The notes under the pieces: generated by a model
Told to the model about the DNA's origin: nothing
Database searches by the model: none
What the model saw: only the letters and a program-made list of their open reading frames with translations
Assembly (NCBI GenBank): GCA_018820085.1
Contig: JAHJOV010000034.1
Location: 1 to 63,776, forward strand
Length of the DNA: 63,776 nucleotides
Reading direction: 5' to 3'
From: Patescibacteria group bacterium
GTDB lineage: Bacteria > Patescibacteriota > Minisyncoccia > Portnoybacterales > UBA2143
Shown here: in pieces, positions 24,171 to 26,743 of the stretch
Numbering within the stretch: the first letter of the stretch is position 1
Layout: each line of letters opens with the position of its first letter
Made by a program: the position numbers and the translations under genes

Positions 24171-24199
24171 TTGACAAATATATCGCATTATGCTATATT
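24171..24199 (+). promoter_or_regulatory. Sigma70-like promoter for the DGR target gene
   Basis: TTGACA (24171-24176), 17 nt spacer, TATATT (24194-24199). Confidence 0.55.
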
Positions 24200-24272
24200 A
24201 ACAGAAAGTTAAAATTCTTTGAAATATGAATATTTTTTAGAAAAAACCAAAACCAAGCAAAGGAGGTTTGTC

Positions 24273-25004
24273 ATGACAAAGAAAGAATTGTGTAAAGATC
24301 AGCGCGAAGGATTGATTGCCAAGCTAACGGCCTTTTTCAAAGGCCTGGGAGCCGAGGTAATCGACGATGTGGTGGCCGAGGCCAAAAAACAGGCCAATGC
24401 CGAAACGGTTGAAGACCGCAAGAATGGACTGGCCAAACTATTTGATAACCAGCTCGAAACCCTGAAATCCCAGAACTGCCCGCAAGCCATTCTGGAAGCG
24501 TTCCAGAACAAAAAGAGCGATGTGCTCAACAAGGCGGCCGAGATGGAAATTCCCGAAGGGAATATTCCTTTCGTGCCAGTCATCCCCCGTTCTTACATGG
24601 GTATTTACGGACTTATGCCCATGGTCCGCAATGACGACAAGATGGGTTACACCTACCTTAATCCGAACGAGATGACCGACAACGAAGAAGAAATCCCAAA
24701 AAATCCATATTACATCTATGATATTGAGCCCGGGAAAGTCACCCTCGGTAAATCGCCAGAAGACGCCGAGAAGATTATCAAAAAACAGAACCGTCTGCGC
24801 CACATCACTGATGAAGACATTGCTGTTTGCGTTCACACGGACGTCTTATCGGATCACTATCTCTGGAGCACCGGTTCCCGCTACGAGCATTCCGACGAGG
24901 TGCCGTTTGTCTGCCTCGGCGGCGACGGGCCGGTGCTCGTCTGGGTCGGCGCTGGCAGCTCGTTTGACGGGTGGGGTTCCGCTTCGTGCCGTAGTCGGGC
25001 TTAG
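24273..25004 (+). CDS. DGR variable (target) protein, orphan N-terminal region, C-terminal VR
   Basis: AGGAGG at 24261-24266 then ATG 24273 (ORF-track start 24219 trimmed). Visibly GC-rich compared with neighbours. The last 42 codons are the VR. No signal peptide or TM segment is apparent. Confidence 0.85.
   Translation: MTKKELCKDQREGLIAKLTAFFKGLGAEVIDDVVAEAKKQANAETVEDRKNGLAKLFDNQLETLKSQNCPQAILEAFQNKKSDVLNKAAEMEIPEGNIPFVPVIPRSYMGIYGLMPMVRNDDKMGYTYLNPNEMTDNEEEIPKNPYYIYDIEPGKVTLGKSPEDAEKIIKKQNRLRHITDEDIAVCVHTDVLSDHYLWSTGSRYEHSDEVPFVCLGGDGPVLVWVGAGSSFDGWGSASCRSRA
24872..24996 (+). repeat. DGR variable repeat (VR)
   Basis: 125 bp matching the reverse complement of 26762-26886. 24 mismatches by hand count, all at TR adenines, falling in 15 codons at positions 1-2. 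The last 26 nt (GTGGGGTTCCGCTTCGTGCCGTAGTC) are invariant. Confidence 0.9.
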
Positions 25005-25096
25005 GTTCTTGGCGCCTTGGACCTTTTGGTTTTTTGTTCTTTGTTTTCGCCGAAGGCGACCGCTACAAATTTTTACGCTAAACGCGTACACCCCAA

Positions 25097-25135
25097 GGGT
25101 AGGTCAGAAATGATCTACCCTTCTTTATTTTCAAT
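25097..25135 (+). terminator. Terminator of DGR target gene
   Basis: GGGTAG-GTCAGAAATGAT-CTACCC followed by TTCTTTATTTT. Confidence 0.6.
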
Positions 25136-25157
25136 AATTTTTATAGTACAATAAAAA

Positions 25158-25306
25158 TGCTGCCTATATTGACTGGGAATACCCCATGGGCGATTGCTTC
25201 TTTAGTTCCAATTGCGGGCTGAAAGGGGCAGTCGCACTTCCACAATTGGAGCCCTTTGGGGTTTCAGTCAATGTGGGCAGCAGGTCGGCTGTCCCTTTTT
25301 GTTTTT
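25158..25306 (+). ncRNA. Candidate structured RNA (rod-like, nested helices) with competing intrinsic terminator
   Basis: P1 is 25158-25175/25265-25282 (18 bp, two U-G pairs valid only in plus sense). P2 is 25181-25191/25251-25262. P3 is 25207-25214/25243-25250. The apical stem is 25217-25221/25229-25233. The terminator stem 25275-25281/25288-25295 plus T-run shares its 5' arm with the P1 3' arm. Confidence 0.4.
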
Positions 25307-26355
25307 CATGGATTTTTCAGCCACTCCCACATTTTATGTCTTAGCTCTTGCTCCAACTTATAGCTATTGGCGTGACTTAATACTCCTAGATAAGAATTGA
25401 ATGATTGCATCAGTGTTTTCTCATCTATTTTCCCTCTTTTATATTCTTTAACTCTTTGCCTCAATTTCTTGAAAATTCTTTGTTTGGTTTTAGTTCTTAA
25501 AACAATGGCTTTGGGCAGGATTACATAACCCAGAAAATCAATTCCCTGCTGGTATTTGCGGATAGTGACTTTGTCGGGATGAAATGATAATTTCAGTTCT
25601 TTTTTAAGAAAAACTTCAATCTGATTCTTTAAATCAGATAAGTAGTCCTGATTATGATGAACAATAATAAAATCGTCGGCATAGCGAACATAATATTTCG
25701 CTTTGAGCCGATCTTTAATAAACTGGTCCATTTCATTCATATAAACATTGACCAGTATTTGCGAAGCAAGATTGCCAATCGGAGTTCCCTTTTTATTTCT
25801 TTTGGTGGTGAATTCCGACTCAAAACTTTTGACAATCTTTTTTATCAGCCATAAAGCGTTTTTATCTTTAATTCTTTTAGCAATAATATTCATTAATATT
25901 TTGTGATCAATAGTTGGAAAGAACTTCTTAATATCACACTTTAAAACAAAACATTTGCCGTAGGTTTGGTAAACAGCTTTTAACATTTTGTCCAACTTGA
26001 TAACCGCCCGGTGAGTTCCTTTTTCCTTTCGGGATGAATAAGAGGTATAAACAAAGGTCGGATTAAAAATAGGGTAGAGTTTTCGGTGGATGGCATGATG
26101 AACGATTCTGTCTCTGACCGTTGCTTTGTGGATGTGCCTTCTTTTTGGGTCGTTAATGTAAAAACCGACATATTGGCCATGCTTGTATCTCTTGCTTTTT
26201 AATTCCTGGTGAAGGGCAAACAGATTATCTTCCAGATGAAGCTCAAATTCCTGAACATCTAATTTCTCTCTCTTGCCTTTCTTGAATTCATCCCAAGCCA
26301 AAAGCAAATTCTCCATTGAAATTATATCCTTAAAAATGTCTTTATAAATCTTCAT
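25306..26355 (-). CDS. DGR reverse transcriptase
   Basis: TPIGNLASQILVNVY (the IGxxxSQ motif characteristic of DGR RTs), YADDFIIV, GIDFLGYVI. Alignable by eye to Bordetella phage Brt. I prefer ATG 26355 (MKIYKDIF...) over the TTG 26394 of the ORF track. Confidence 0.9.
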   Translation of the reverse strand: MKIYKDIFKDIISMENLLLAWDEFKKGKREKLDVQEFELHLEDNLFALHQELKSKRYKHGQYVGFYINDPKRRHIHKATVRDRIVHHAIHRKLYPIFNPTFVYTSYSSRKEKGTHRAVIKLDKMLKAVYQTYGKCFVLKCDIKKFFPTIDHKILMNIIAKRIKDKNALWLIKKIVKSFESEFTTKRNKKGTPIGNLASQILVNVYMNEMDQFIKDRLKAKYYVRYADDFIIVHHNQDYLSDLKNQIEVFLKKELKLSFHPDKVTIRKYQQGIDFLGYVILPKAIVLRTKTKQRIFKKLRQRVKEYKRGKIDEKTLMQSFNSYLGVLSHANSYKLEQELRHKMWEWLKNP

Positions 26356-26357
26356 AT

Positions 26358-26717
26358 ATGCAAAATTTAAACCAAATTCAAAGCGAGGCGCCAATCCTCA
26401 AAAAGACAACTGATCTTTATAAGGAGTTCTATGAGTGTTTAAAAACCTTTCCCAAAAAAGATCAACATATGCTGGGCAAGAAATGCGAGGAAAATATCAT
26501 TGATTTTATGGAATTGATATTATCCGCAGTCAGCTCGTACAAGCAAGAAAAAAAGGCAAAGCTCTTAGAAGCGAATAATAAGTTTGATCTTTTAAAGGTT
26601 TTACTTAGAATGGCCCGGGAGTTTAAGATGATAGATAATAAAAAATACCTAAATCTGGAAGAAAAGATTCAGGAAATCGGCCGAATGCTCGGCGGCTGGA
26701 TTAAATCCCTAAACTAA
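26358..26717 (+). CDS. avd: Avd-like four-helix-bundle protein (DGR accessory variability determinant)
   Basis: 119 aa and helical. FPKKDQHMLGKK...LLRMAREFKMI...IGRMLGGWIK is typical of Avd / 23S-rRNA-IVS four-helix-bundle proteins. Adjacent to the RT and TR. Confidence 0.8.
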   Translation: MQNLNQIQSEAPILKKTTDLYKEFYECLKTFPKKDQHMLGKKCEENIIDFMELILSAVSSYKQEKKAKLLEANNKFDLLKVLLRMAREFKMIDNKKYLNLEEKIQEIGRMLGGWIKSLN

Positions 26718-26743
26718 AAGCGTCCTCCAATTGGACGCTTTTT
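26718..26743. terminator. Hairpin terminator after avd (also 20 nt downstream of TR on the other strand)
   Basis: GCGTCC (26720-26725)/GGACGC (26733-26738) then TTTTT. Flanked by an A-run, so it is formally bidirectional. Confidence 0.6.

Follow-up and report, generated by a model that had tools for sequence, protein, structure and literature searches.

The ~150-nt stretch at 25156-25306 is, judging from comparative sequence evidence, an independent plus-strand small-RNA gene that would be expressed from its own promoter and ended by its own intrinsic terminator. The predicted RNA represents an undescribed family of a known kind, namely a structured RNA with attenuator-like logic, and appears to be carried by integrative mobile elements of Patescibacteria rather than being specific to the DGR in which it was found. 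The explanation preferred here as a whole, that it is a mobile-element small-RNA gene acting as a two-state transcription gate, is given about even chances of being right.

The window, i.e., the whole stretch of DNA analysed (63,776 nucleotides), belongs to a Patescibacteria genome of 556 kb in 42 contigs that is 94% complete and whose closest relatives are all Patescibacteria/CPR MAGs. The RNA element is placed in the 300-nt space between the converging target and reverse transcriptase (RT) genes of the DGR, ~160 nt past VR (Table 1). The hairpin and T-run at 25095-25122 are predicted to divide the target transcript from the RNA gene, and equivalent hairpins or T-runs occur in relatives upstream of the RNA promoter. 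The RT stop codon occupies 25306-25308 and its probable start is the ATG at 26355, the frame being open to 26394 and the alignment of relatives beginning at residue 13-14. Just upstream of the target gene, a near-consensus promoter (TTGACA-17-TATATT, with TG) is observed at 24171-24199.

Table 1. Features of the RNA element and of the surrounding DGR cassette (positions in the window)
Feature	Position	Strand	Remarks
DGR target gene	24219-25004	+	VR 24872-24996; same strand as the RNA, upstream of it
Intrinsic terminator of target gene	25095-25122	+	12-bp hairpin followed by T-run; from terminator scan
-10 region of RNA promoter	TATAGT 25143-25148, overlapping TACAAT 25147-25152	+	6-10 nt before the closing helix
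Predicted RNA transcript	25156-25306	+	~145-150 nt; ends placed from promoter and T-run
P1	25158-25177/25263-25282	+	20 bp, four G-U pairs in the plus sense
P2 and P3	25181-25185/25258-25262 and 25188-25191/25251-25254	+	10/10 pairs changed on both sides
U-rich strand GAUUGCUUCUUU, helix P4	25192-25203/25222-25233	+	In MFE fold; G-U-rich
P5 hairpin	25204-25208/25216-25220	+	U-A to C-G covariation between clades
Purine strand GAAAGGGGCAGUCG	25221-25234	+	5' arm of terminator stem PT; alternatively 3' strand of P4
Conserved CUUCCACAAUUGGA segment (CCUCCACAAUUGG in relatives)	25237-25250	+	Three alternative partners
Terminator 3' arm (CGGCUGUCCCUUUU) and T-run	25286-25299 and 25296-25306	+	Ends at RT stop codon
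DGR reverse transcriptase	25306-26355	-	Pfam RVT_1 1.3e-27; convergent with RNA gene
avd	26358-26717	+	Pfam bAvd 8e-24
TR	26886-26762	-	VR/TR mismatches all at TR adenines

Fold, strand and family of the RNA element

Folding of 25140-25310 yielded -73.1 kcal/mol for the plus strand, compared with -47.7 +/- 4.2 kcal/mol for 200 dinucleotide shuffles (z -6.1, with none of the 200 as good), and -55.0 kcal/mol (z -4.3) for the minus strand. That the plus strand is structured, as put forward in the original prediction, is thus borne out, both against shuffled sequence and as the stronger of the two folds. Among 23 distinct sequences, 93.5% of the cells of the model structure are paired, versus 37-47% when the partner column is slid, and 34 of the 46 pairs are altered on both sides, so that covariation, which had been proposed as a check, is present in related loci. 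The rod formed by P1-P3 has 27 of its 30 pairs altered on both sides and 89-97% of its cells paired, the corresponding values for P1 being 17 of 20 pairs and 97% of cells. The 18-bp closing helix first described (25158-25175/25265-25282) is contained in the 20-bp P1, and the second helix (25181-25191/25251-25262) matches P2/P3. The 3' arm of P1 also holds a conserved UGUGGG (25272-25277), for which UCCACA at 25239-25244 is an alternative partner. DNA of this organism occurs in the groundwater runs X1-X12, and a deep contig from run X2 (depth 92, possibly the source sample) has A, not G, at 25162, a change that would convert a G-C pair of P1 to A-C.

Towards the apex the fold has to be redrawn. 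Of the apical stem once suggested at 25217-25221/25229-25233, RNAalifold retains two pairs only and relatives show an A-C mismatch; covariation supports instead a hairpin formed by 25192-25203/25222-25233 and capped by P5. A-U to G-C and other compensatory changes are read from the alignments at the base of P4. The P5 loop CAAUUGC (25209-25215), which caps this long P4 hairpin, is complementary to CAAUUG at 25243-25248, and its partner shows an A-U to G-C change in four relatives (L113, L114, L120 and L107). The complementarity noticed earlier between TCCAATTG (25207-25214) and CAATTGGA (25243-25250) is likewise real, its centre showing compensatory A-U to G-C change in 4 of the 23 relatives. 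Because the flanks of this CAATTG/CAATTG pairing are frequently mismatched (10 and 15 of 23 cells), it may be a loop-to-strand tertiary contact and not a 12-bp helix. The conserved segment at 25237-25250 can pair alternatively with the P5 loop, with 25207-25214, or with the UGUGGG in P1. A small hairpin at 25238-25251 (CUCC/GGAG) was discarded, as it is lost in the integrase-linked clade.

Regarding the strand, variable positions place C or U facing G and G or A facing U, combinations that pair in the plus sense only, and the covariance model scores the window at 164-166 bits on the plus strand (model positions 1-157) versus 33 bits on the minus strand. The G-U asymmetry, the score of 166 against 33 bits and the conservation of a plus-strand promoter and terminator all agree with the initial assignment to a plus-strand structured RNA and not to the 3' UTR of the RT. 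Every copy of the family has a -10 box, often extended (TGnTATAAT), 6-8 nt upstream of P1; the -10-like box originally noticed in front of the element therefore recurs with the same spacing in every relative, and the integrase-linked clade presents a full promoter (TTGAGA-17-TAAAAT). A simple promoter scan missed the promoter of the RNA because its -35 region is weak. A T-run follows the element in every copy except L085, where an IS66 transposase stands in its place. As for expression, one groundwater metatranscriptome (X20) shares 6% of words with the window, and its single 168-nt contig maps to 24324-24491, inside the target gene and off the RNA element.

The same data bear on whether the conserved feature acts as DNA rather than as RNA, either as a recombinase attachment site, as a cruciform for DGR target recognition or as a bidirectional terminator. 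Such a role, though suggested by the proximity of serine recombinase genes, by the position ~160 nt past VR and by several contigs that end in or at the element, is barely credible considering that (i) the element is asymmetric between strands, G-U pairs becoming A-C on the other strand (166 vs 33 bits, -73 vs -55 kcal/mol), (ii) only one of the strands shows a conserved promoter and T-run, (iii) it is internal to mobile elements whose modules are shuffled on both sides, and (iv) the DGR of L003 looks working without it.

The family was delimited by several searches. Two related DGR loci hold the element at ~85% identity and in the same position, while the contigs sharing an exact 24-mer with it numbered 13 from metagenomes and 3 from genomes. 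Ten copies were used to build a covariance model, which detected diverged members in 8 of 151 related genomes, and a motif scan retrieved 13 further Patescibacteria contigs; a class-wide scan with a second model added no genomes, and a pattern scan of viral contigs gave no matches. Distant members score 47-134 bits with model R2 and down to 37 bits with R1, DGR-linked and integrase-linked copies being recovered by one covariance model. The apparent hyper-conservation of the 3' half within the DGR clade was set aside as largely a matter of ascertainment, since an exact 24-mer of the 3' arm had served to retrieve these copies.

No Rfam 15 family reached its gathering threshold over the element, even when the isolated stretch was searched at E 10. 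The best score over it was that of MIR537 (18.8 bits, threshold 100), and a match to RT-3 (15 vs 40.5 bits) falls beside the element and not on it. SRP RNA and 6S RNA had been considered because of the rod-like fold and the GGGGCAGC block, and both were rejected given that RF00169, RF01854 and RF00013 have no match on the element and that the RNA is present in only 8 of the 151 relatives. Separately, six-frame and covariance-model searches of the host genome (G000, 94% complete) returned no SRP54-type GTPase (PF00448; neither Ffh nor FtsY), no SRP_SPB M domain, and neither a small nor a large bacterial SRP RNA. RF00169 matched none of the 41 genomes of the same order, in which the PF00448 cut-off was reached by three hits only: one covers the domain (240 bits, in a genome 84% complete), and the other two are short pieces of 23-24 bits. 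All control genomes scored in this search. The SRP pathway may thus be missing from the order, or be very divergent in it.

Mobile elements and the DGR cassette

Three genomes of 97-100% completeness contain the RNA and no DGR RT, two other RNA-bearing genomes have a DGR RT elsewhere in the genome, and the RNA is found at none of 78 related DGR loci. The neighbours of the non-DGR copies are those of mobile elements, including a Toprim primase-like protein and unknown ORFs, and on the same strand the RNA is followed by a YceG-like or unknown gene and then by a large serine recombinase. The next gene runs in the same direction as the RNA in all 14 non-DGR relatives examined. In L106, L120 and L087 the upstream gene is divergent, so that the RNA heads the transcription unit. 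The ~200-aa gene upstream of the RNA in the integrase-linked copies shows no homology to the DGR target. Six integrase-linked loci (L110, L113, L117-L119 and L121) share a conserved TTGACT(T) within the 20-40 nt directly after the T-run, a possible -35 box serving the YceG/integrase genes behind it, or else a protein site.

DGR and mobile-element genes are found together in L093, where ~7.5 kb between infB/DUF4446 and the NIF3 gene hold a complete set consisting of target, RNA, RT, avd, TR, a DnaD/HTH gene, a CI/LexA-like repressor and a serine recombinase; the locus of another DGR-linked lineage, L083, likewise closes with a fragment of a recombinase. The carrier elements would typically encode a large serine recombinase, and some of them also a Toprim primase-like protein, a DnaD/HTH protein and a CI/LexA-like repressor. 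A DGR lineage with members in or beside such elements in two lineages would have taken up the RNA once and kept it between target and RT. Grouping of the RNA-linked DGRs into one clade of the RT tree has support of 100/98, and within it the RNA was lost once, in L003, whose DGR looks working without the RNA, has kept avd and has target and RT split only by a terminator. Read on this tree, one DGR sub-clade gained the RNA once and lost it once.

Within this clade the RNA has been retained across RT divergence down to 56% identity. It is intact where only a C-terminal remnant of the RT survives (L084, L090 and L091), where an IS66 transposase occupies the place of the RT (L085) and where no DGR is left (L087). 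On the minus strand of L085 (2247-2290), the terminator tail from GGTCGG on is replaced by GTAACCCC..., which suggests an IS insertion exactly at the terminator tail. The window contains no large serine recombinase, the only one of the genome being on another contig. In the region 36482-43070 of contig C5 in G000, a second RT (RVT_1, 9e-16) is found ~4.5 kb from that recombinase, and no copy of the RNA is present there. That the RNA might be a cofactor, as scaffold or specificity factor, of the large serine recombinase and/or of an RT-Avd complex is highly improbable in our judgement; such a role would explain both its travel with the two modules and its near constancy while the proteins diverge.

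The genes avd and RT are arranged divergently, their start codons being separated by 2 nt (CAT AT ATG, 26353-26360), and avd is therefore antisense between TR and RT. The same arrangement, with avd on the opposite strand just upstream of the RT, was found in 75 of the 80 related CPR/DPANN DGR loci fetched (L002-L081), at distances from a small overlap to ~230 nt, the five remaining contigs ending at or just before the RT; it is thus the rule in this DGR clade rather than peculiar to the window. Between the avd stop and the 3' end of TR, a hairpin with T-runs on both strands (GCGTCC-TCCAATT-GGACGC, 26720-26738) looks like a bidirectional terminator, which would end the TR transcript ~25 nt past TR and before the RT. 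A kissing interaction between the RNA and the loop of this avd/TR terminator (CCTCCAATTGG, 26724-26734) was dismissed as chance, since the motif is confined to the window and its closest relative, L016.

This layout had led to the proposal of a riboswitch or attenuator whose read-through, antisense across the RT, would supply the avd transcript. The contiguity of the avd and RT start codons, the position of avd on the strand of the RNA, and the terminator/antiterminator logic of the element are all in its favour. However, the avd/RT layout is the same in ~78 related DGRs that have no copy of the RNA, L003 lost the RNA and kept avd, and the RNA exists without avd in many genomes; the helix thought to be shared with the terminator, moreover, is not the conserved partner (see below). 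As the RNA is missing from ~78 DGRs of this layout and found in DGR-less genomes, avd does not need it, and control of avd through ~1 kb of antisense read-through, which finds no support, is very unlikely. Nor is the idea of a DGR riboswitch supported, for the RNA occurs without a DGR RT, no ligand-type conserved core was found in it, and the next gene in the window is the convergent RT.

An alternative confined to the DGR cassette derives from the convergence of the RT and RNA genes, by which an RT transcript running past its stop codon would be fully complementary to the RNA. The latter could then act in cis as an antisense RNA on the RT mRNA, the duplex being cleaved or blocking RT expression and so setting the rate of mutagenesis. 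Besides the convergence itself and the end of the RNA T-run at the RT stop codon, this would agree with the lack of a convincing minus-strand terminator between the RT and RNA genes (the T-run of the hairpin is not kept in relatives, as read from the sequences) and with retention of the RNA through RT divergence to 56% identity. Nonetheless, the family is older and wider than its DGR link, most members have no convergent partner, and the fold, including its G-U pairs, is selected, something not required for pure antisense action. This alternative is regarded as unlikely.

Terminator stem and the purine strand

Stem PT joins 25221-25234 to 25286-25299 through 14 bp, with 96.9% of cells paired, compared with 42-71% when slid. 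Three of its positions show compensatory change, one of them a CAG-to-CGA replacement matched by CUG-to-UCG in sequences with an unaltered P1 arm; covariation is modest in that at least three compensatory pairs were reached by shuffles in 30 of 500 trials. The window shows the GAAAGGGGCAG...GCUGUCCC-U-run terminator pairing that serves to recognise the family. The terminator sequence is conserved in non-DGR members too, hence RT coding does not explain its conservation. The T-run that had been expected after a hairpin and up to the RT stop codon is found at 25296-25306. On the contrary, the hairpin first assigned to it, formed by GGGCAGC (25275-25281) and GCTGTCCC (25288-25295), is only partly sustained: it pairs with one bulge, but reaches 7 of 7 pairs in the clade of the window only, and 4-6 of 7 elsewhere. 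Similarly, the notion of a closing helix and a terminator that exclude each other was right as to a terminator competing for a shared strand, and wrong as to the strand, which is 25221-25234 and not the closing helix.

Since 25221-25234 is complementary to the U-rich strand as well as to the terminator tail, the purine strand has two partners, the U-rich strand at 25192-25203 being the proposed antiterminator strand. Mean duplex energies are -20 kcal/mol for PT and -11.6 kcal/mol for P4. The invariant blocks CCUCCACA, UGUGGG and CAGG pair mutually when the 3' domain is folded alone, as would be expected of segments doing double duty in two folds. At the level of aligned sequences, both sets of pairings, P4 and PT, are shown to be under selection.

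In the gate envisaged here, a first state would have the rod P1-P3 closed and the U-rich strand, through the weak and G-U-rich P4, holding 25221-25234, so that the terminator tail would be left unpaired and the polymerase would read through. In the second state, pairing of 25221-25234 with 25286-25299 (14 bp, exceeding P4 in strength by ~8 kcal/mol) directly upstream of the T-run would bring transcription to a stop. Genes behind the gate are co-directional in the integrase-linked copies. In the window the gate faces the convergent RT, and it would set whether the plus-strand transcript ends at the RT stop codon or continues antisense into the RT, its output being either a ~145-nt RNA or antisense transcription into that gene. 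Alternation of the two folds in vivo, like read-through itself, is an inference.

Several aspects speak against such a gate. By nearest-neighbour estimates the nested terminator fold is less stable than the rod fold by ~15 kcal/mol, and the rod is also the first to form during transcription. Either some factor would then have to free the purine strand for the terminator to win, or P1 and PT would coexist as a compact pseudoknot, and in the latter case the product would be a plain terminated sRNA. The TTGACT after the T-run in the integrase-linked clade could give the genes behind it a promoter of their own, and the modest covariation of PT, which 30 of 500 shuffles equal with three compensatory pairs, is a further point against. 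In addition, more than nine DGR-linked copies have no co-directional gene directly downstream and the RNA is still conserved, a situation that a trans-acting role fits at least as well.

The RNA would in that case be a trans-acting small RNA, or the RNA of an RNP, of the mobile element; it would always terminate, PT being a terminator or part of a pseudoknot, and it would act elsewhere through its exposed CCUCCACAAUUGG and CAAUUGC loop, for example in immunity or maintenance of the element. This explanation is held to be somewhat improbable. In its favour are the promoter and terminator conserved across all gene contexts, retention of the RNA where the RT has decayed or is absent, conservation in DGR cassettes without a co-directional downstream gene, and strongly conserved non-helical blocks. 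Against it, targets of CCUCCACAAUUGG sought within 6 kb in all loci gave nothing consistent, with a single 10-nt match in L087; alternative intramolecular pairings account for all the conserved blocks; and no partner protein is common to every context.

Significance and relation to known systems

The element defines a new and well-supported structured RNA family in candidate-phyla bacteria, in which, to our knowledge, hardly any regulatory RNAs have been described. It further connects one DGR lineage with mobile elements of the serine-integrase type, suggesting a route by which hypermutation cassettes move. Should the two-fold gate be true, the RNA would constitute a compact and self-contained terminator switch, which at the 3' end of the RT could set antisense entry into that gene and, with it, the frequency of DGR firing.

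ON-type transcriptional riboswitch platforms and attenuators, such as the pbuE adenine riboswitch, consist of a promoter-proximal structured RNA followed by an intrinsic terminator. As in pbuE-type platforms, one terminator arm of the RNA element is shared with a helix of the structured domain, and the two folds would exclude each other. Unlike them, it has no conserved junction core that could be found, its conserved bases being those that pair in double duty, and it differs from riboswitches in its 20-bp closing helix, in the lack of a co-directional downstream gene in the window and in having no Rfam riboswitch match. The lambda OOP RNA acting against cII, and antitoxin RNAs of the RatA/txpA type, are convergent, 3'-overlapping antisense RNAs of mobile elements. 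The element resembles OOP and RatA in being a short RNA with its own promoter and terminator, borne by mobile elements and directed against the 3' end of a convergent protein gene; on the contrary, most members of the family have no convergent partner, and the RNA is far more structured, with a fold under selection.

Finally, the template RNA of the Bordetella phage BPP-1 DGR is flanked by a spacer, Sp, which is reported to adjoin the 3' end of TR on the strand of the RT and to be required for cDNA priming (bioRxiv 10.1101/2023.10.23.563531). The RNA element differs in lying on the opposite strand, downstream of the RT and ~1.5 kb from TR, and in being missing from ~78 related DGRs and found in RT-less genomes. 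What it shares with Sp is its nature as a structured non-coding RNA within a DGR cassette.
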